DNA of 64,000 bases from an uncultured Bdellovibrio sp. GTDB taxonomy: Bacteria > Bdellovibrionota > UBA1018. The notes under the pieces were generated by a model, which saw nothing but the letters and a program-made list of their open reading frames with translations, searched no databases and was not told the origin of the DNA. The DNA is taken from contig CAZBEI010000118.1 in assembly GCA_964490895.1 (NCBI GenBank), forward strand, positions 482 to 64,481, read 5' to 3'. Below, one piece after another: positions 19,468 to 51,714 of the stretch. The first letter of the stretch is position 1; each line of letters starts with the position of its first letter. Position numbers and translations under genes: made by a program.

Positions 19468-19893
19468 TCATGAAAGCACGTTAAACCCTTCTTTAATCGC
19501 CGCCCTTGCAAGTTGTTCATCAAATGTCACAAAATTGAGTCTGCTTGGGTGATCATCACAGGCCACTAAGGCTGCGGCGAGTTGAAGCGAATCAGAAGCC
19601 TGCAAAACATGTGCTCCTAAAAGTCGTTCAGCCTTTTTTTTAACTTGGGTGGTATGAGTGACCTCCATCCAAAGGCGGTCTAGTTTTTTTAGGTTTTTAA
19701 AACATCCCTTTAAAACCACTTCGGAAAGTTGTTTTGTCCTTTCTCTTCGATAAAGAGCAGAGAGGCATTCTACAGAAGTAAAACACCAAACCACAATTTT
19801 TTTAGTTTGTCCTAAGAGCTCAAGAGAGTGAGGGGTTCTTGTCTCTTCGACTAAAAGAGGAACAACAGCAGAGGAGTCCCAAAAGGTGATCAT
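19468..19893 (-). CDS. vapC: PIN-domain toxin (VapC-like)
   Basis: 141 aa with conserved acidic residues at FWDSSA, ASDSLQLAAA and FVTFDEQL, overlapping the upstream antitoxin by 4 nt. Confidence 0.65.
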   Translation of the reverse strand: MITFWDSSAVVPLLVEETRTPHSLELLGQTKKIVVWCFTSVECLSALYRRERTKQLSEVVLKGCFKNLKKLDRLWMEVTHTTQVKKKAERLLGAHVLQASDSLQLAAALVACDDHPSRLNFVTFDEQLARAAIKEGFNVLS

Positions 19894-20234
19894 CTCCCCT
19901 CTCTACGATCTTTTAAGAGCTGCTCTAAAACCCCAGCAGGGCCACTCCCACAGGAGATGTTTTTTTTAAGTTCATCTATCACAGCCCGATTTAACACCCC
20001 TTTTCCGCGTGAGATCATCCCCTTTGTCTCTAATTGCTGCAAATAGACTTCTTCTTCATTGTATAAAAATTTTTCGATCGGAGTAATTTCTGCAATGGGT
20101 GTGTTTCGTTCAAAAACACGTACAGTTTCGCCTTTTTTTACAAGGACAAGAAATTCGCTGAGGTGATTTTTTAGTTCTGCTATATTGGCCTTTCTCATAT
20201 AGCTATGATAGCTATATTTAGAGCTCGAAGTCAA
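19890..20234 (-). CDS. Phd/YefM-family antitoxin
   Basis: The segment ANIAELKNHLSEFLVLVKKGETVRVFERNTPIAEITPIE is Phd/YefM-like. The true start is probably the internal Met at about 20198. Confidence 0.55.
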   Translation of the reverse strand: MTSSSKYSYHSYMRKANIAELKNHLSEFLVLVKKGETVRVFERNTPIAEITPIEKFLYNEEEVYLQQLETKGMISRGKGVLNRAVIDELKKNISCGSGPAGVLEQLLKDRREGR

Positions 20235-20280
20235 TGGGAATTTCAGTCAGTCTGGCTGGAGATGCTGTTCCTTTTGGTGT

Positions 20281-20411
20281 TTAAATTAGGCAATAACATT
20301 AGCAGCTTAAAACATCATTTGACGAAAACGGTGCATTTATTTATTATATAACGATAGTTCAAGTGCTTTATTGGGGGACGTATGAAGTCAGGGGTGCTAA
20401 AAATAATAAAC
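20281..20411 (+). repeat. partial, diverged copy of the ~170-bp promoter-plus-start repeat (copy A0)
   Basis: Carries TTGACG-N17-TATTAT and ATG AAG TCA GGG GTG CTA AAA ATA ATA AAC (MKSGVLKIIN), matching the start of the 793-aa gene at 22670. The reading frame is cut after 10 codons by the MITE. Confidence 0.6.
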
Positions 20412-20988
20412 GTGACTGTTCAGCCTCATTCTTCAGGCTCGGTGTAAAAACTACGGCGGCCATTCCGGTGTGGGCCAGTTATTTTGAAATAAAATATAAA
20501 GAAACTCTTGGATGTTTTTCTGAAAGTATCTTTTAATACCCACAAGATCTCTTCCCCACTCCACAATTCGAGACCAAGCGAGATCATCCCAAAAGCGTTT
20601 TAGGGCTGGCTGCCCCTTCTTTGCTCCTGTCATCACTCGGGCAATGAGGCCTGTTCTTTTCTCTGCTTCTTAAAGAAAGGAAAATGCATCTGTTTTTCTT
20701 GTTTTTTCATTCGCCTGTCCCGGTTGTGTTGTATAGGATACGAGCAATGTTATTTCAACCCTATTTTTTTATCCAATGGTCTAATTATTTTATTTTAAAA
20801 ACATAGTAATTTTTCATTTTGTAAACTTTTGCAAACATTTATAAACTTTTTCACAGCTTTTTATGCTGTGCGAACACACATGCACTTGTAAGGCCTGAAA
20901 ATATCTTTTTTTTATAAGTCCACCCCGGGGGCCACCGGGGGTCTATCGCTTTTTAAACCAAGCCTGCAGAATGAGGCTGAACAGTCAC
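20412..20988. mobile_element. non-autonomous MITE-like element with ~40-bp imperfect terminal inverted repeats
   Basis: Left end GTGACTGTTCAGCCTCATTCTTCAGGCTCGGTGTAAAAAC, right end ...AAACCAAGCCTGCAGAATGAGGCTGAACAGTCAC as its inverted complement. Length is 577 bp, the only internal ORF is a 61-aa one without motifs, and there is a GC-rich palindromic core (CCCCGGGGGCCACCGGGGG). Confidence 0.6.
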
Positions 20989-21014
20989 GGTTTTTTTTAT
21001 TATTTTCAAGCGCT

Positions 21015-21184
21015 GGGCTCTCAATCGATACCATGAAAGAGGTCGATGAAAAATTAAAACACGTTCTTGATCTTAACTAATTAAGCAATAAAATAAACAA
21101 CCTAGGAGGATTGTTGACTGACTTAAGTTAGTTATTTATTATATATAAATATAGTTCAGATATTTTATTGGGGAACGTATGAGA
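21015..21184 (+). repeat. ~170-bp direct repeat copy A1 (flanks ATPase paralog 2 on one side)
   Basis: About 90% identical to 22511..22680, including TTGACT-N17-TATTAT and an ATG. Here the ATG opens only a 9-codon ORF. Confidence 0.7.
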
Positions 21185-21204
21185 GATGGCTATGTGGCTT
21201 TTGG

Positions 21205-22386
21205 CTAACTCCAATAACTCCACGGCAAAAGACAGACTCCCTGTTTCGGAAGATGGACGGTATTGACAGGGGCGAGAAGAACAGCCCGTTTGACTCCAAG
21301 AGCCTTCATAGCGCCTGTCAAGCTGCGCGCATGGTACTCCATTTGAGAAGGGGCAATTGTTTCGCTCATGATTTTTATCGGTATGTTTTGCCAAACAAGA
21401 TCAATCACAGGACCATGAATGCTTTTATAATAATTTTTACGCATCACAAACCTTTGGTACTCATTAAAACAAAAGATCTCGTTTAATAAATAATGCCTAG
21501 CAATAGAGAGACTGACTTCTGGTCCAGTTTTTATTGGGGAAAGATGGAATGCTAGCCCAGAATCTCCAAACATCCAATGGTCATTACCCACTCCAGGTTC
21601 CTGGACAGTAAATCTCCTGAGAAAAAAAATATTTTCAAGTGCCTGAATGTAACGTTTTGCTTTTCGCTTGTCACCTCTCACATAACTCAAGGAGGGATAA
21701 TCAGCGTTAGGAAGAGCTTTGGCTAGCATCTGAATTAACGAAAAACAATAATCAGGATCAAACCCCTTTCCGTAAGCACGCGCTGCATCGCGGACAATTG
21801 TTGTGTCAAGCCAGTTATTCCAATATTCCTTGCACATATTCTCGTCGCGAATAAAGGCAGGAACTGGGAGACCTCCTGATCTCATTTGCACAGACAAATC
21901 TTCAAACTTAAATCGTGGTGTCGAGGGAGACAGGAAGTGTGACTCATTTTTAATAGTTTTCTGAGATTGTTGATGGATTTCACCAAAACACATGGGGTAA
22001 AGATGCAACAAGCCAATTCTACCAGTTAATGATTCTCGAACACCTATTTTTTGTGAAAACGCAACTGATCCGGTCAAAAACCACTGGCCAGGGATTTTTT
22101 TTCTGTCTACCAGTGATTTAATCGAATCAAATAATAGGGGTGCTTTTTGAACTTCATCAAGTACGGTAGGGGATCCCTGGTGTCTACTTAGAAAAACGCG
22201 AGGTGCGGCTAGGGCTTCAGCTCTCATTTCTTCGTCATCAAAACTGAGATAGTTTTTAATCCCAATGCGATCTCTCAGCAAAGTAGATTTGCCAACCTGT
22301 CTCATCCCGAGTACTCCAACAATTGGCCAGAAACTAGCCATTTTTTTTATTTTTACCTCACTAAAACGAGGTCTTTGGTGTGGCAT
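21205..22386 (-). CDS. AAA+ ATPase with DUF4143-like domain, COG1373 family, paralog 2 (nuclease-like motif degenerate)
   Basis: 393 aa with P-loop GMRQVGKSTLL and Walker B TVLDEVQ. The C-terminal region VIDLVWQNIPIKIMSE lacks the E-x-K seen in the other three paralogs. Confidence 0.65.
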   Translation of the reverse strand: MPHQRPRFSEVKIKKMASFWPIVGVLGMRQVGKSTLLRDRIGIKNYLSFDDEEMRAEALAAPRVFLSRHQGSPTVLDEVQKAPLLFDSIKSLVDRKKIPGQWFLTGSVAFSQKIGVRESLTGRIGLLHLYPMCFGEIHQQSQKTIKNESHFLSPSTPRFKFEDLSVQMRSGGLPVPAFIRDENMCKEYWNNWLDTTIVRDAARAYGKGFDPDYCFSLIQMLAKALPNADYPSLSYVRGDKRKAKRYIQALENIFFLRRFTVQEPGVGNDHWMFGDSGLAFHLSPIKTGPEVSLSIARHYLLNEIFCFNEYQRFVMRKNYYKSIHGPVIDLVWQNIPIKIMSETIAPSQMEYHARSLTGAMKALGVKRAVLLAPVNTVHLPKQGVCLLPWSYWS

Positions 22387-22510
22387 AAGTAATATAAATA
22401 ATATGCACTGAGTTGAAAAAAAATGATAGCACTTTTTTAGACAATCACTCGGTTACACACCAGGGCTATTTATGCTTTAGAAAAGGCCCTTCTAAAAAAC
22501 CACATCATGC

Positions 22511-22680
22511 AGCTCTCAATCGATACCATGAAAGAGGTCGATGAAAAATTAAAACACGTTCTTGATCTTAACTAATTAGGCAATAAAATAAACAGCTTAG
22601 GAGGATTGTTGACTAATTTAAATTAGCTATTTATTATATATATAGTTCAGATATTTTATTGGGGGACGTATGAAATCAGG
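22511..22680 (+). repeat. ~170-bp direct repeat copy A2 (promoter, RBS and start of the fibrinogen-domain gene)
   Basis: Direct repeat of 21015..21184. It lies between the divergently oriented ATPase paralog 2 and the 793-aa gene. Confidence 0.7.
22609..22637 (+). promoter_or_regulatory. sigma-70-like promoter of the 793-aa gene
   Basis: TTGACT-17 nt-TATTAT about 30 nt upstream of the GGGGGA RBS and the ATG at 22670. The same architecture occurs in copies A1 (21114..21142) and A0. Confidence 0.5.
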
Positions 22681-25051
22681 GGCATTAAAAATAATAAATA
22701 TAATGACCAGAAACCACCGTGGGAATACCCTCATGCTTGCCCTCCTGTTTACGGGCGCAGCAAGCGTGATTGGCTTAGGTATATTGGCCGCTATTGAAAC
22801 AGGACGCAAGCAGCAGGGAATCCGGATTGAAGAGAGTAACCCAGCGGCATTTCTTTCCTTACTGACGGGTAAGACTATTGAGGACATTTCTAAAAATTAT
22901 TACTGCCCTCAAAAAAGCACCAATGAAACTATCACTTTTACTCAATTTTTTGATAAGCTGAGAACAGACGGAAAACTCAACTCTAGAGGCCATCTGTCTA
23001 TTCCTCTTTTAGGCAAGTCAGAATATCTCATTAAAACTCCCAATGGAGTAGTGAGATCAGAAATAGATCCAGCATCAGAGGTTGCACTAATAGGAGCTGG
23101 AACACCCAATGAGCAGCTGGTGATACAAATTACGGTATCACTCTGCAGGTATGCACAAGCTGCAGGAGTTGCATGTCCTCCTGCACTTATTCTCCCCTCA
23201 ACTGTTTATAAAGCTTATATTAATAACACGAAAATACTGGAGCCATGTGGGAGCGCATTGCCTACTCCAACTCCATTTCCTGCTTCTTTTGTATTTATTG
23301 ATTCTGCAACAAATCTGCCTGCGCAAAAAGACGGCGCAAATCATATCTTAGAAGTTGGGGAAAGATATTTTGTTTTAGCTTCGATTGGGAAACCACCAGG
23401 CACAAGTGTAAATTATATTGTGAATTTTTCTCCAAGCAGTGGACCCTACTTTCAGCTCACATCCACTGGAGCAACAGCTCTCGTAGATGCAAGCGGAAAA
23501 TTCAGAACTACAGATCTCCATTTTAATAGAAACGCAAATCCTAACCTCAATGTTCCTCCGGGTCCTTATATTGCAAGTGTTGGAATCGGGACAGACCCCG
23601 TCCTCACAACCCCTGTGGTCGTAGTTCAGCCTGCCTGTGTTAACACAAGAAAACCACAATCTTGTTTGCATCTATTAGAATTAGATCAGAGCAAAAAAAA
23701 TCAGGATGGAATTTATACTATCGACCCAAACCAAGATGGAAAAAATCTACCAGTTTATTGTGACATGACAACAGATGGAGGGGGGTGGACACTTTTTGCA
23801 AATAATAACAGTCCAGGTTTTCCTGGAGGATGTCTGAGTGGTTTAAACCCCACTTTAGCTCTTGGAACCGATAAACGGACTGTTAACGCTCTGGCCTCAA
23901 AACCACCAAACAGTGTTGCAAGAATGGTCATAAATGGAAGTGCATCTAACGGCCAACCCTTTTCCTTTGATGTAAAACAAAGTGGTCTAACAGGCGCATT
24001 TCAGCCCAATATGGGGTGCAATATACCTAGCGAAGGTAATGCTCTTTACCAAATTCCTAACTTTACTCAGGTTATTTCGCAATCAAATGCTCAGGTTAGT
24101 TCTGGAAGTAATCCACTGGGAGTGCGAGTGGACTCCGGGGGTACTGCCGATTTTCAAATTCTTGGAGGTAAAGGAATAAGAATTGGAACGGGATTTCCAC
24201 CCGTACTTCCCCCCCGAAAAGCAACGGGAATTCTTTGGATGCCACAGAGTAACCAAGCGCTTCCATATGCAAATCAAATGAATATCCGATGGTTATGTTA
24301 TAGCCCTCAAAATCTATGTCCGACACTCCATCCTGATACTGGAAATAGAGTGACTTCGATGCAGCTTTTTTACAGAGAAGATGTGGCTGATTTACCCGAG
24401 GATCCATGTATTCCTCCCGGAGCAGTTTTGTGTGAGCTAGCTCACGGAGGACCCGGCTCTCCTGGTGGGAGTGTTGCCTGTCCAGGCAGGAAGAAAATCT
24501 TAGGCGGTGGATTTAGATATTCGAGTGATGGGACTTTTCCGTATCAAAATGGTTGGGGAGCAACTGGTTACACAAGTGGAATACCCCGTGAAGCTTTTGC
24601 TATTTGCTGTAACCATGTGGGATCTCTTGATTTGAAGTCTGGACGACAGGTAAGCAATCTCTATCATAATGTAGCTTTTGCACCCATTCAGTGCGAAAGC
24701 GATGAAATCGCTGCGAGCGCAGGGGGGATTAGTTCTTCTGGTGGATCTGTGTCTTGCTCTCCTGATATGAACAATATTTCGAAATTTAATTGTAATATGG
24801 TAGCAATTCCAAACGACCTTTTTCTGTATGCGATGTGCTATAAGAAGCCTCCAATTCCGTCTAAATTTGAATGGATTAAATCTTCTGGTTCTGTTGCTAC
24901 ATGTAAATCAGGAACTAAACTTATTTCTGGCGGGTTTTCTTGCAGTACAGGAGTTTTTGGTGTTGGCTATGCTATTCCAAACTTAATCAACAACACCTAT
25001 TCCGTAAGCTGTGCTGGATCAACATATGCACTCTGTGTGGACGAAAATTAA
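22670..25051 (+). CDS. large secreted/anchored protein with a fibrinogen-related domain and duplicated Cys-rich C-terminal modules, probable adhesin/lectin
   Basis: 793 aa with a hydrophobic N-terminal anchor or signal. DGIYTIDPNQDGKNLPVYCDMTTDGGGWTLFANNN matches the fibrinogen C-terminal domain hallmark (VYCDM-TDGGGWTV). Two C-terminal repeats follow the pattern C.G.K.L.GGF...C. Confidence 0.7.
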   Translation: MKSGALKIINIMTRNHRGNTLMLALLFTGAASVIGLGILAAIETGRKQQGIRIEESNPAAFLSLLTGKTIEDISKNYYCPQKSTNETITFTQFFDKLRTDGKLNSRGHLSIPLLGKSEYLIKTPNGVVRSEIDPASEVALIGAGTPNEQLVIQITVSLCRYAQAAGVACPPALILPSTVYKAYINNTKILEPCGSALPTPTPFPASFVFIDSATNLPAQKDGANHILEVGERYFVLASIGKPPGTSVNYIVNFSPSSGPYFQLTSTGATALVDASGKFRTTDLHFNRNANPNLNVPPGPYIASVGIGTDPVLTTPVVVVQPACVNTRKPQSCLHLLELDQSKKNQDGIYTIDPNQDGKNLPVYCDMTTDGGGWTLFANNNSPGFPGGCLSGLNPTLALGTDKRTVNALASKPPNSVARMVINGSASNGQPFSFDVKQSGLTGAFQPNMGCNIPSEGNALYQIPNFTQVISQSNAQVSSGSNPLGVRVDSGGTADFQILGGKGIRIGTGFPPVLPPRKATGILWMPQSNQALPYANQMNIRWLCYSPQNLCPTLHPDTGNRVTSMQLFYREDVADLPEDPCIPPGAVLCELAHGGPGSPGGSVACPGRKKILGGGFRYSSDGTFPYQNGWGATGYTSGIPREAFAICCNHVGSLDLKSGRQVSNLYHNVAFAPIQCESDEIAASAGGISSSGGSVSCSPDMNNISKFNCNMVAIPNDLFLYAMCYKKPPIPSKFEWIKSSGSVATCKSGTKLISGGFSCSTGVFGVGYAIPNLINNTYSVSCAGSTYALCVDEN

Positions 25052-25527: not shown

Positions 25528-25558
25528 CCTACTCCATCCTCACCAAAGGCTCCGGAAA
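25528..25558. repeat. 30-bp direct repeat, copy 1 (CCTACTCCATCCTCACCAAAGGCTCCGGAAA)
   Basis: Matches 26867..26897 at 28 of 30 positions. On the minus strand it lies in frame immediately after the ATPase paralog 3 stop and would encode SKFPEPLVRME*. Confidence 0.7.
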
Positions 25559-25564
25559 CTTGCT

Positions 25565-26782
25565 CTATATAAGAGCCTGTAAAAATTTCCAAGCTGGCAG
25601 AACCCGTATCCCTCCATTTTTATAGTCGCCATCTGAGTTGAGAACAACCTGGTAGCTTTCTTTAATTTCTAGTCGTGTATTAAAATAGATAAGTTGTGGA
25701 GAAATTGCCGTATCACTCACTTTTGCCTCAACAGTGAACCAAGGTTTGCCGTCACAGAGAACCAAAAAATCTACCTCTCTTTTTTCTTTGTCTCTTAAGT
25801 AACAAAGCTCCATTTTATAGCCGGCATAATCAGTATAGAAATGGCAAAACTTCAAAAGATGGCTTGCGACGAGATTTTCAAAACGAGCGCCTGGATTAGA
25901 AATGATGGCCCAATCCCAAAGATACATTTTGGGTTCCTTTTTAAGAGAGCGGGTTTTTTTAACTGCAAAGGGTCTCATTCGATACAAAAAATAAAGTCTC
26001 TCTAATATGTCAATCCAATGTGAAATGGCTTTGTGCGAAGTGTCCAAATCCTCTCTTAAGGAATTAATTGACAGTGGGGAACCGGCTCGAGAGGGTAAAA
26101 TATCACATAACGTTTCAATCCCAGATAAGTCAGGAAGATTTTCTAGATCTCGAATGTCTTCTTTAAAAAAACGGTCTAATCTTTCATTCTGCCAACGCCT
26201 CAACTTACGTTGACTTTTCTTTAAAAAAGGCTCTGGAAAACCGCCAAACTCTATTAAGTCTGATAAAGTAGAAATGCTTTCATTTTTTTTACTTAAATCT
26301 TTCGGAATCTGTAGTGGAGCAAATGGTACTATTTCCTTTTCGCCCGGTAGAGAGAGCCCGAGAGCCTCTGCTAAAGTAAAAGGGTGCATCCGATAGAGGT
26401 GGTATCTTCCCTGCATAGAGTCTCCTCCTTTGCGATACACGTCTAATCTTGCGCTTCCTGTCACTAAAAATTTTCTATCGTCTAGGTGTTTATCATAAAT
26501 ACCTTTGACGAAATTTTTCCATTTTTTGTATTTGTGAATTTCGTCAAAAATGATGACCTCGGCATCTGACTTCCAAAGTGACTTTAGAATTCTTTTTCGG
26601 TCTTCTCTGTTGTCCCAATTCAAATAATCCACTTGACTTGGGGAGAACAAATTTTTTGAAAAAAAGGTTTTTCCAACTTGTCTAGGACCTGCTAAAAAGA
26701 CCATCTTTTCTTTTAAATCCTCTAAAACTGGCTTTGATAAATATCTTTCCAATGGGCAATGTCCTTTCTCAAGTAAGCTCAA
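25565..26782 (-). CDS. AAA+ ATPase fused to a DUF4143 (PD-(D/E)xK-like) domain, COG1373 family, paralog 3
   Basis: 405 aa with P-loop GPRQVGKTFF, Walker B IIFDEIH and C-terminal EVDFLVLCDGKPWFTVEAKVS (D...E-x-K). Confidence 0.7.
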   Translation of the reverse strand: MSLLEKGHCPLERYLSKPVLEDLKEKMVFLAGPRQVGKTFFSKNLFSPSQVDYLNWDNREDRKRILKSLWKSDAEVIIFDEIHKYKKWKNFVKGIYDKHLDDRKFLVTGSARLDVYRKGGDSMQGRYHLYRMHPFTLAEALGLSLPGEKEIVPFAPLQIPKDLSKKNESISTLSDLIEFGGFPEPFLKKSQRKLRRWQNERLDRFFKEDIRDLENLPDLSGIETLCDILPSRAGSPLSINSLREDLDTSHKAISHWIDILERLYFLYRMRPFAVKKTRSLKKEPKMYLWDWAIISNPGARFENLVASHLLKFCHFYTDYAGYKMELCYLRDKEKREVDFLVLCDGKPWFTVEAKVSDTAISPQLIYFNTRLEIKESYQVVLNSDGDYKNGGIRVLPAWKFLQALI

Positions 26783-26823
26783 AGATAGGATACGACTTTT
26801 TTAGCCTATAGGCAAAATTATTC

Positions 26824-26858
26824 ATGACTTTTTTATCTAGTTGGATAAAAAAGTCATA
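26824..26858. terminator. perfect 14-bp stem hairpin (ATGACTTTTTTATC-tagttgg-GATAAAAAAGTCAT), probable bidirectional terminator or cassette-end structure
   Basis: Perfect inverted repeat with T/A runs, located between the peptidase stop (26868) and the ATPase paralog 3 start (26782). Confidence 0.5.
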
Positions 26859-26866
26859 GTCTGACC

Positions 26867-26897
26867 CCTACTCCATCCTCACCAAGGGCCCCGGAAA
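26867..26897. repeat. 30-bp direct repeat, copy 2 (CCTACTCCATCCTCACCAAGGGCCCCGGAAA)
   Basis: Encodes the C-terminal FPGPLVRME* of the C39-like peptidase and is a direct repeat of 25528..25558. Confidence 0.7.
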
Positions 26898-36086: not shown

Positions 36087-37916
36087 ATGGGACGAGAAGT
36101 CATGACAAAAAAGGGTCTCATGCCCAAGAAAATTCGCAATTTCTGCATCATCGCTCACATTGATCACGGCAAATCCACTCTTGCAGATCGATTATTGGAA
36201 AAAACAGGCACTGTTTCGTCGCGAGAAATGGAAGCTCAATTCCTAGACAACATGGATATTGAACGCGAGCGAGGGATTACGATCAAAGCCCGAAGTGTAC
36301 GGCTCAAATATCGCAGTAAAAAAGGCGAAGACTATATTTTGAATTTAATCGATACGCCAGGACATGTCGATTTTACTTACGAAGTCTCTCGAAGCTTAGC
36401 CGCTTGCGAAGGGGCTATCTTAGTGGTTGATGCCTCGCAAGGAGTCGAAGCACAAACCCTGGCCAATGTTTTTATGGCTTTAGATAACAATCTCGAAGTT
36501 TTTCCAGTCATCAATAAAATCGACCTGCCTGCGGCAGATCCTGAGCGAGTATTAAAAGAGATCGAAGAGATGATTGGCCTTGTAGACATAAAAAGAGCAC
36601 TTCTCTGTAGTGCTAAGGCTGGAATTGGAATTAGCGAAGTTTTAGAGTCTGTGATCGAGCATTTTCCACCCCCCAAAGACGAAGACGCTAAGCCTCTCAA
36701 AGCCCTTATTTTCGACAGCTGGTATGACGCCTATCAAGGAGTCATTGCGCTTTGTCGGATTTTTGAGGGGAAAGTAAAAAAAGGTGCAAGGATTAAGCTT
36801 TATCATGTGGGTAAGGAATTCGAAGTTCAGCGTTTAGGAGTTTTTTCTCCCCATTTTACAGATGTAGAGGAGTTGGGCGGTGGAGAAGTTGGGGCTATCG
36901 TCTGTGGAATCAGAGATGTGAGAGACATGAAAGTGGGCGACACAATCATGGACGCACAAAACCCTGCTGCTCTGCCACTCGAGGGCTTCAAGGAAGTCAA
37001 ACCCATGGTCTTTAGCGGTGTTTACCCCATTGACGCTGATCGCTATAATGATTTAAAAGAGTCCTTAGAAAAACTGAAGCTCAATGACTCTTCTATTAGT
37101 TGGGAACCGGAGACCTCCACTGCTCTCGGCTTTGGATTTCGGTGTGGTTTTCTTGGGCTTTTGCACATGGATGTCGTCCAAGAGCGTTTGGAGAGAGAAT
37201 ATCACCTCGACCTCATCACAACAGCTCCCTCTGTTGTCTATCGAGTCATTAAAACAGATGGCAAGATTTTGCGTGTTGACAATCCCTCTAAGCTTCCAGA
37301 TCTCACTCAAATTCAAGTGATCGAAGAACCTTACATTTTGCTCACCATCCATTTGCCGGCAGAATACGTGGGCGCTGCCATGACGCTTCTCAATGACCGA
37401 CGTGGAATCCAAAAAAAAATGGATTATTTGGCACATGATCGTGTTATTTTAGTTTACGAAATGCCACTCAATGAGATGGTGTTTGATTTTTATGATCGAC
37501 TAAAAAGCATCACCAAGGGTTATGCTTCGATGGACTATGAGCTCAAAGATTATAGGCCATCAGATCTTATTAAACTCGATATTTTGATCAATGGAGACCC
37601 TGTAGATGCGCTTTCTTTGATTATCCATCGAGAAAAAGCCATTTATCGTGGAAGAGAACTCGTTAAGAAAATGAAGGAACTTATCTCAAGGCAGATGTTC
37701 GAAGTGGCAATCCAGGCTGCGATTGGCTCTAAAATAATCGCCCGAGAAACCGTGTCTGCACTACGTAAAAATGTCACCGCCAAGTGTTACGGCGGAGATA
37801 TCTCACGAAAAAGAAAGCTGCTAGAAAAGCAAAAAGAAGGTAAAAAGAGAATGAAACAAATTGGAGTTGTAGAAATTCCGCAAGAAGCTTTTTTAGCGGT
37901 TTTAAAAGTGGATTGA
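36087..37916 (+). CDS. lepA: elongation factor 4 (LepA)
   Basis: 609 aa with [22 protein letters not shown] and the LepA-specific C-terminal domain. The true start may be an internal Met near 36120. Confidence 0.9.
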
Positions 37917-37978
37917 CGTAGGCAATAAATGGATTGTCGTAGGCAATAAATGAATTGACGTAGGCAATAAATGGATAT
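37911..37978 (+). repeat. 3.2 x 21-nt tandem repeat GGATTGACGTAGGCAATAAAT in the lepA-lepB junction
   Basis: Units at 37911, 37932 and 37953 with a partial fourth. The first unit contains the lepA stop and the last overlaps the lepB ATG (37971). Each unit carries TTGACG. Confidence 0.8.
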
Positions 37979-51305: not shown

Positions 51306-51397
51306 CAGTGACTGTTCAGCCTCATTCTGTAGGCTCGGTGTAAAAACGGGAGTGGCCGCCGTAGGTTTTACACCGAGCCTGAAGAATGAGGCTTAGG
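51306..51397. mobile_element. foldback remnant of the 20412-20988 MITE (both TIRs separated by 17 nt)
   Basis: GTGACTGTTCAGCCTCATTCTGTAGGCTCGGTGTAAAAAC-gggagtggccgccgtag-GTTTTACACCGAGCCTGAAGAATGAGGCT. The spacer is the complement of CTACGGCGGCC found just inside the left end of the long copy. Confidence 0.6.
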
Positions 51398-51714
51398 CAT
51401 TTCTAAACAACATCTTTGCGATATAGAAAAAGGCAGAAAACTTGTGAGTCCAGAGCGTGCTGCAAGATATTGTGAGCCGCGATGGTTTAGCCTATCGGGT
51501 AGAGCTAAAGCTGGCGTAGATTCCTGCCCCAAATAGGCTCTAATCCCTCAGTAGATTGTGGGAGGGGCATGAGCTTTTTTGGTGGAGGTAAATCTGGTGA
51601 CAAAGTGCACTTCCGGCGCCGAAGTAGAGGCTGGCCACAAAGTGGCTGAGCCGCGGCTCCTCTTCTTCAGAATAGAGTAGACATTGCTCCGCATATATCG
51701 GATAATATCGGAGT

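Follow-up and report, generated by a model that had tools for sequence, protein, structure and literature searches.

A decayed tyrosine transposase gene between long inverted repeats, and a foldback doublet of the same arms, in an uncultured Bdellovibrio

The inverted arms and their surroundings

The window analysed here, the whole stretch of 64,000 nt, contains a 577-bp element at 20412-20988 whose ends are formed by the arm sequence GTGACTGTTCAGCCTCATTCTTCAGGCTCGGTGTAAAAAC and its imperfect complement. These 40-nt arms (20412-20451 and 20949-20988) are inverted with respect to each other and identical at 36 of 40 bases, and ungapped extension of the inverted repeat gives 53 nt at 87% identity. 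The same two arms occur back to back at 51308-51347 and 51363-51397, around a 17-nt spacer. The features of the two loci are as follows.

20284-20410, plus strand: site of the insertion, where the 793-aa gene (at 22670) has its promoter, RBS and first 28 nt duplicated in diverged form (83%); the homology ends at the element boundary
20412-20451, plus strand: left terminal inverted repeat (TIR), the arm downstream of the transposase pseudogene, beginning right after its stop codon
20451-20654, minus strand: 3' part of the transposase pseudogene, the last ~66 codons and TAG, with FWD...WSRIVEWGRD...Y-x3-N; contains the 61-aa open reading frame (ORF)
20633-20710, minus strand: 5' remnant of the transposase pseudogene, ATG at 20710-20708 and ~20 codons (MKKQEKQMHFPFFKKQRKEQ), 18/20 identical to the protein P0184, then out of frame to a stop
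20715-20855, minus strand: upstream (promoter) region of the transposase gene, conserved with the region upstream of the intact homolog P0161 in locus L030
20949-20988, minus strand: right TIR, on the upstream side of the transposase gene; the foldback shares its outer flank AAAAAAAC-N
51308-51347, plus strand: foldback arm a, orthologous to the right arm on the upstream side of the gene; 92% over 48 nt, the outer A-run included
51346-51362, plus strand: foldback spacer GGGAGTGGCCGCCGTAG, reading E-W-P-P-stop, 17/19 nt identical to 20451-20469, inverted
51363-51397, minus strand: foldback arm b, orthologous to the left (gene-downstream) arm, outer ~10 nt missing; abuts a 5'-truncated XRE-type helix-turn-helix (HTH) gene fragment

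A 33-nt arm pattern allowing up to 3 mismatches has 3 sites in the window and 0 in 100 shuffles, and a profile built from the arms recovers exactly four arms from the 64 kb (E 2e-14 to 1e-10) and nothing further. The first-pass annotation had described both an element with ~40-nt TIRs and a second locus with the TIRs back to back, 17 nt apart; both descriptions are borne out, with the refinement that the second (right) arm of the foldback lacks its outer ~10 nt (GAACAGTCAC). Compared over 48 nt, the left arm is 94% identical to the second foldback arm and the right arm 92% identical to the first, while the two arms of the 577-bp copy share 87%. Since the likeness across loci exceeds that within the copy, both loci share an ancestor whose ends were already distinct, and two independent local inverted duplications are thereby excluded.

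Each arm starts with GTGAC and holds one 5-bp stem only, AGCCT-N8-AGGCT. Folded as single-stranded DNA, the single arms do no better than shuffles (z -0.1 to -0.7), and the ends of the 577-bp element are likewise not better than shuffled sequence, so that the hairpin recognition typical of IS200, IS608 and REP is not evident. The GT[AG]G foot is absent from the arms, and the GGGGWSAS motif is absent from GTGACTGTTCAGCCTCATTCTTCAGGCTCGGTGTAAAAAC. Moreover, the arm sequence is absent from every public collection searched (genome, metagenome, viral, plasmid and phage): exact-pattern scans with the arm core GCCTCATTCTNNAGGCTNGGTNTAAAA gave 0 matches in each of the genome, metagenome and viral contig collections, a 16-nt core has 0 matches in all 111 fetched loci, and BLASTN of the element against plasmid and phage collections returned no match. 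An RNA gene was considered and rejected, as Rfam (whole window at gathering thresholds; 20200-21250 at permissive ones) gave only a tRNA-Ala and chance-level matches.

The element had been described as inserted into a duplicated gene start. This holds, the gene being the 793-aa gene at 22670 and not an ATPase; the element is placed after nucleotide 28-29 of the duplicated start. The promoter, RBS and start of this gene are present in three tandem copies, A (20284-20410), B (21017-21182) and C (22512-22698), each with a promoter-like TTGAC[GT]-17-TATTAT site. Copies B and C agree at 154/162 positions, their first 67 nt being identical, and copies A and C at 100/120. Copies A and B are separated by the Y1 element, copies B and C by an ATPase gene.

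The position of the segment between duplicated promoter copies, together with the weak extension of its inverted repeat into the A-rich flanks, would suit a local inverted duplication, the alternative that the first-pass annotation had named, or an invertible (phase-variable) promoter segment before the 793-aa gene. Either is barely credible. Both arms, with their end-specific variants, recur 31 kb away beside a gene remnant, the interior is a transposase pseudogene, and there is no neighbouring recombinase gene.

Four AAA_14(/DUF4143) ATPase genes are present in the window, with a mutual identity of only 21-31%, and the vicinity of both arm loci to such genes had been pointed out. When the four were compared by tblastn with ~90 loci holding homologs of the transposase described below, an ATPase neighbour was found in only 2 (L038 and L030). 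The adjacency is not a general property, and it is explained by how abundant such ATPase genes are, not by a functional link. Beside the 577-bp copy, the ATPase gene runs on the minus strand, within an insertion of its own flanked by a 166-nt direct repeat.

Two AAA_14/DUF4143-type ATPase genes, at 21205-22386 and 25565-26782, are both on the minus strand, and the segments that contain them (21183-22511 and 25559-26866) look like ~1.3-kb single-gene insertions between direct repeats. In the first the repeat is 166 nt long at 95% identity (copies B and C); in the second it is 31 nt long with 29/31 matches (25528-25558 and 26867-26897) and duplicates the last 9 codons and stop of a C39 peptidase gene. 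DUF4143 has been classed as a PD-(D/E)XK nuclease domain (PMC3424549), and no mobility is described in the DUF4143/COG1373 literature. Perfect palindromes stand just upstream of AAA_14-type ATPase genes in the window (26824-26857, 14-nt arms) and in L030 (1065-1123, 27-nt arms); they may be operators or terminators. Directly left of the duplicated promoter region lies a pair of PIN-domain toxin and Phd/YefM antitoxin genes (19468-20234, minus strand). Taken together with the Y1 element and the ATPase insertions, this pair shows 19.4-27 kb to be variable and rich in insertions. Elsewhere in the window, a 21-nt unit (AAATGGATTGACGTAGGCAATAAATGGAT-like) is repeated three times at 37906-37976, straddling the start of an ORF at 37971, and a 12-nt unit is repeated five times in a coding region at 2064-2136.

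A transposase pseudogene of the HUH/Y1 type

The 61-aa ORF inside the element (20451-20636, minus strand) had been said to show no transposase features, and this was wrong. Extended to the preceding stop and scored against 1.84 billion representative proteins, it has 234 relatives, the best of which (E 4e-21) is matched at 63% identity over residues 129-190 of a 199-aa protein. The ORF is the C-terminal, Tyr-bearing third of a HUH/Y1 tyrosine transposase, including the catalytic Y-x3-N. In tblastn with the close homologs P0160 and P0161, their last 66 residues align to 20651-20454 at 80-82% amino acid identity, up to the stop codon, and their first 19 residues align to 20710-20654 in a different frame. 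At the DNA level, 20758-20697 corresponds to the promoter and start of the gene in L030, and 20651-20450 to its 3' third. Between these matching blocks lie 361 nt in L030 versus 45 nt in the window, which points to an out-of-frame internal deletion of ~316 nt in the window copy, with loss of the HUH region and a junction near 20651-20655. The start codon, ~20 codons at the N-terminal end and 66 codons at the C-terminal end have been retained, and the TAG stop (20451-20453, minus strand) adjoins the left arm directly. Conservation with L030 continues for ~145 nt upstream of the start (local alignment score 68 versus 28 +/- 5.5 in shuffles). Given that its ORF is part of a HUH/Y1 transposase, the 577-bp copy is a decayed autonomous element and not a MITE. 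Its non-autonomous state was correctly recognised, in that it is now unable to move alone.

The transposase belongs to the IS200/IS605-RAYT superfamily, in a lineage found in Bdellovibrionota. Sequence models recognise it faintly: Pfam Y1_Tnp (IS200-like transposase) gives weak matches to several relatives, the NCBIfam REP_Tyr_transpos (RAYT) model gives 19-23 bits against an 80-bit cut-off, and the IS200 model is also far below its cut-off. Several members are named 'REP element-mobilizing transposase RayT' by JGI. The family profile matches the solved structures of ISDra2 TnpA (E 3e-5) and IS608 TnpA (E 0.008), and for the AlphaFold model of the intact protein P0183 (mean pLDDT 88.5) the best 30 PDB matches are all HUH/Y1 transposases, among them E. 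coli TnpA-REP (4ER8). Conserved across the family are G-N-H-L-H (the HUH motif), F-W-D and an invariant Tyr with an invariant Asn at +4 (Y-x3-N). The intact paralogs carry GNHLH and Y168-x3-N172, of which the window copy holds the Tyr half only. No Pro follows the Asn of Y-x3-N in the family, the Tyr helix lies close to the end of the 192-aa protein, which is without a C-terminal HTH domain, the family C-terminus reads ...NNWPTPE[WL]PP, and there is an N-terminal extension of ~55 aa.

The cluster formed at 90% identity around the 60-aa ORF of the window contains two full-length 192-aa proteins, P0183 and P0184, and a 53-aa fragment, P0185. P0184 is intact and is 100% identical to the window ORF over 60 aa and 18/20 identical to its N-terminal remnant. 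Further variants are P0174 (91 aa), with a different internal deletion, and P0187 (169 aa). All are encoded on separate NCBI contigs, of 28,106 nt (P0183), 21,299 nt (P0184), 7,304 nt (P0185), 33,825 nt (P0174) and 58,349 nt (P0187), so that, with the window copy, at least six variants of the gene with 86-100% identity are found on separate contigs. By exact look-up, the proteins of the window are themselves encoded on an NCBI contig of 65,202 nt. In the 90% clusters of MetK, TldD and LptG, the protein of the window is the sole member; the collection therefore seems to contain no genome of a close relative, and on this ground the five further variants can most likely be assigned to the window's own assembly. 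If the assembly is indeed shared, the gene would exist in several copies, two or three of them intact and at least three decayed, as insertion sequences do and single-copy domesticated RAYTs do not. A transposase-bearing partner had been expected outside the window, and P0183 and P0184, both intact at 192 aa, would be such relatives, to judge from their protein sequences.

On a broader scale, the nearest genome representatives are Bacteriovoracaceae MAGs, with an LptG identity of only 57%. No inverted repeats surround the homologs in 7 loci inspected by eye and with a tool, nor in 80 metagenome loci scanned with a script (~75 with intact homologs), the one exception being L081, a short contig with a 309-nt inverted repeat that is probably an assembly artefact. 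As a positive control, the same scan recovers the arms of the window at E 4e-12. The arms are a lineage-specific feature and not one of the whole family, since intact homologs elsewhere are without flanking inverted repeats. In the metagenome sample Ga0208375 (L059 2709-3579, L070 2704-3579, and L032, L034 and L035), the Y1 family occurs in units of ~0.66-0.88 kb that are 86-94% identical and stand in different contexts. These units have no terminal inverted repeats and carry GCGCAG before the left boundary; they look like an active IS200-like family.

The foldback doublet and the insertion sites

As single-stranded DNA, the doublet at 51308-51397 folds into one hairpin (-34 kcal/mol, z = -9.5). 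Its spacer is informative, as homologs without arms have the same C-terminus and the spacer bases consequently belong to the gene, not to the arm. This gene remnant indicates that the doublet arose from an arm-bounded, gene-bearing element from which nearly everything between the arms was lost. By the codons and stop that it keeps, the foldback is an internal-deletion derivative of that element, in agreement with its earlier description as a miniature or deleted derivative. The opposite course, in which the 577-bp copy was born by insertion into the hairpin, is excluded, as the foldback spacer is the 3' end of the gene.

An integron attC site was also considered for the 92-nt foldback and rejected: the R''/R' core pair is missing (the end reads GCTTAGGC instead of GTTRRRY), no cassette array is present, and the same arms bound a 0.5-kb segment. 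Beside the truncated doublet arm starts an XRE-type helix-turn-helix gene fragment without its 5' part (51399-51536, plus strand, ISKQHLCDIEKGRKLVSPERAARY...), and a possible start of this gene (MHSGGSLKKQ) is found just left of the doublet. Probably the element was inserted into the XRE-type gene, and an adjacent deletion followed.

Target-site duplications were looked for at both loci. The 577-bp copy has none, its flanks being ...ATAATAAAC / element / GGTTTTTTTT... (wider: AAAATAATAAAC / element / GGTTTTTTTTATT), and no direct repeat was found around the foldback. Before the gene-upstream arm stands AAAAAAAAC-C in one copy, AAAAAAAC-A in the other. A DDE-type MITE leaves a target-site duplication, and the lack of one fits a Y1 transposase and speaks against a classical MITE. 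The absence of a duplication combined with a conserved short sequence beside one end is a mark of Y1 transposases of the IS200/IS605 type (PMC6006769). With two loci available for target analysis, the flank evidence for a Y1 mechanism is suggestive only.

The MITE-like nature originally proposed for the element is thus not sustained, given the transposase pseudogene inside and the missing duplication. In its fullest form, the proposal would derive the arms from a DDE-type insertion sequence outside the window and make the Y1 fragment a passenger or accidental content. Long TIRs, small copies and a foldback derivative would agree with such an origin, as would the occurrence of Y1 gene homologs elsewhere without these arms. 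It is nevertheless quite improbable, because neither locus has a target-site duplication, the stop codon of the gene abuts the arm exactly and this junction is preserved in the foldback, no DDE transposase is found among the annotated genes around both loci, and Y1 genes bounded by TIRs have already been described (PMC3733652).

The best explanation, which we hold to be probable, is a dead Y1-transposase element with 40-nt TIRs accompanied by a miniature copy in the form of an arm doublet. The original element would have been ~0.9 kb long, with one HUH/Y1 transposase gene between the 40-nt TIRs. The 577-bp segment would be a dead copy in which the out-of-frame ~316-nt deletion took the catalytic HUH region, and 51308-51397 a second copy, cut down to both arms with the last ~five codons and stop, as a REPIN-like or 'TIR dimer' derivative. 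The arms would be the sites at which the Y1 enzyme acts, and movement may have proceeded by single-strand 'peel and paste', as in the IS200/IS605 and REP systems, leaving no duplication. Insertion would take place beside a short sequence that is preferred, in this case a run of A closed by C. Defective copies could still be mobilised in trans by intact paralogs of the same genome.

Relation to known Y1 systems

RAYT-like genes with long TIRs unrelated to REPs were named 'TIRtrons', and their enzymes 'TIRYT', by Di Nocera, De Gregorio and Rocco in 2013 (PMC3733652). Some of these repeats have further copies at other places in the genome, be they single, dimeric or grouped (PMC3733652; PMC6006769). 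TnpA-Y1 proteins were classified by Quentin et al. in 2018: class 1 (IS200, subclass 1.1) has Y-x3-Q, class 2 (TnpA-REP-like) has N/D-H-u-H and Y-x3-NP, and most TIRYTs fall in subclass 2.1, with a C-terminal HTH domain (PMC6006769). The present element resembles a TIRtron in having one HUH/Y1 gene between long TIRs that are not REP hairpins, and a dimer copy elsewhere (51308-51397). It differs in that it is without the GGGGWSAS motif of most described TIRs, its protein has neither the C-terminal HTH of subclass 2.1 nor the P of Y-x3-NP, the gene appears multi-copy and decaying in the manner of an insertion sequence, and the host phylum is Bdellovibrionota. By its motifs (NHLH, Y-x3-N, no Pro, no HTH), the family seems to fit none of the listed TnpA-Y1 subclasses exactly.

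With RAYT/TnpA-REP proteins, the transposase shares the catalytic fold (4ER8 being among the best matches), N-H-u-H and Y-x3-N. A system of the REPtron/REPIN type would accordingly have to be considered, in which a domesticated, non-transposing RAYT-like gene resides between cognate repeats, only the doublets multiply, and the 577-bp locus is a decayed resident gene. The layout matches, with a Y1 gene between inverted repeats and a hairpin-forming doublet of ~90-100 nt with a short spacer elsewhere (PMC3116915, PMC6006769); the doublet hairpin is very stable, and both the RayT names given by JGI and the combination of N-H-u-H with Y-x3-N, as in class 2 TnpA-Y1, point in the same direction. We consider this unlikely on several counts. 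At least six distinct gene variants with 86-100% identity, most likely of one genome, are unlike single-copy RAYTs, and the gene piece held in the doublet implies that a gene-bearing unit was copied. Furthermore, the arms are without a GT[AG]G-footed palindrome and without a significant hairpin of their own, only one doublet is found in 64 kb, and with 21-23 bits the match to the NCBIfam RAYT model does not come near the 80-bit cut-off.

IS200/IS605 elements (IS608, ISDra2 and PATEs) are similar in their HUH/Y1 transposase of ~150-190 aa, in an element length of ~0.7-0.9 kb, in the lack of a target-site duplication and in the conserved short sequence at one end. They are without TIRs, however, and have subterminal hairpins and Y-x3-Q, whereas 40-nt TIRs and Y-x3-N are found here. 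DDE-type MITEs (Correia, RUP and ERIC-like) have in common with the element a small size, TIRs, a non-autonomous state and foldback potential, but they leave target-site duplications and carry no transposase remnant, the opposite of what is seen here. The layout is that of a TIRtron, and canonical RAYT/REPIN and IS200/IS605 each fail on at least one defining feature. A Y1-transposase element with TIRs and a dimer derivative is of a known kind.

A more tentative idea, which we find possible although doubtful, is that the element stands, as a living intermediate, between IS200-like insertion sequences and the RAYT/REPIN state: a Bdellovibrionota Y1 element that moves as gene plus arms, has acquired 40-nt TIRs and yields REPIN-like doublets by internal deletion. 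Such a route to REPINs was reportedly put forward by Bertels and Rainey as a hypothesis only. If the intermediate is real, the last codons of the gene in the loop of the doublet would be direct evidence for the internal-deletion route.

For annotation, what appeared to be an orphan MITE becomes a decayed tyrosine-transposase element with intact relatives in the same lineage. To the short list of TIR-bounded Y1 genes it adds a previously unclassified TnpA-Y1 lineage of the predatory Bdellovibrionota, characterised by NHLH, FWD, Y-x3-N and an N-terminal extension of ~55 aa. The foldback with its stop codon would be a concrete example of a REPIN-type doublet arising from a transposase-bearing element and, should the source genome hold many such doublets, it would offer a convenient case for the transition from insertion sequence to REPIN.
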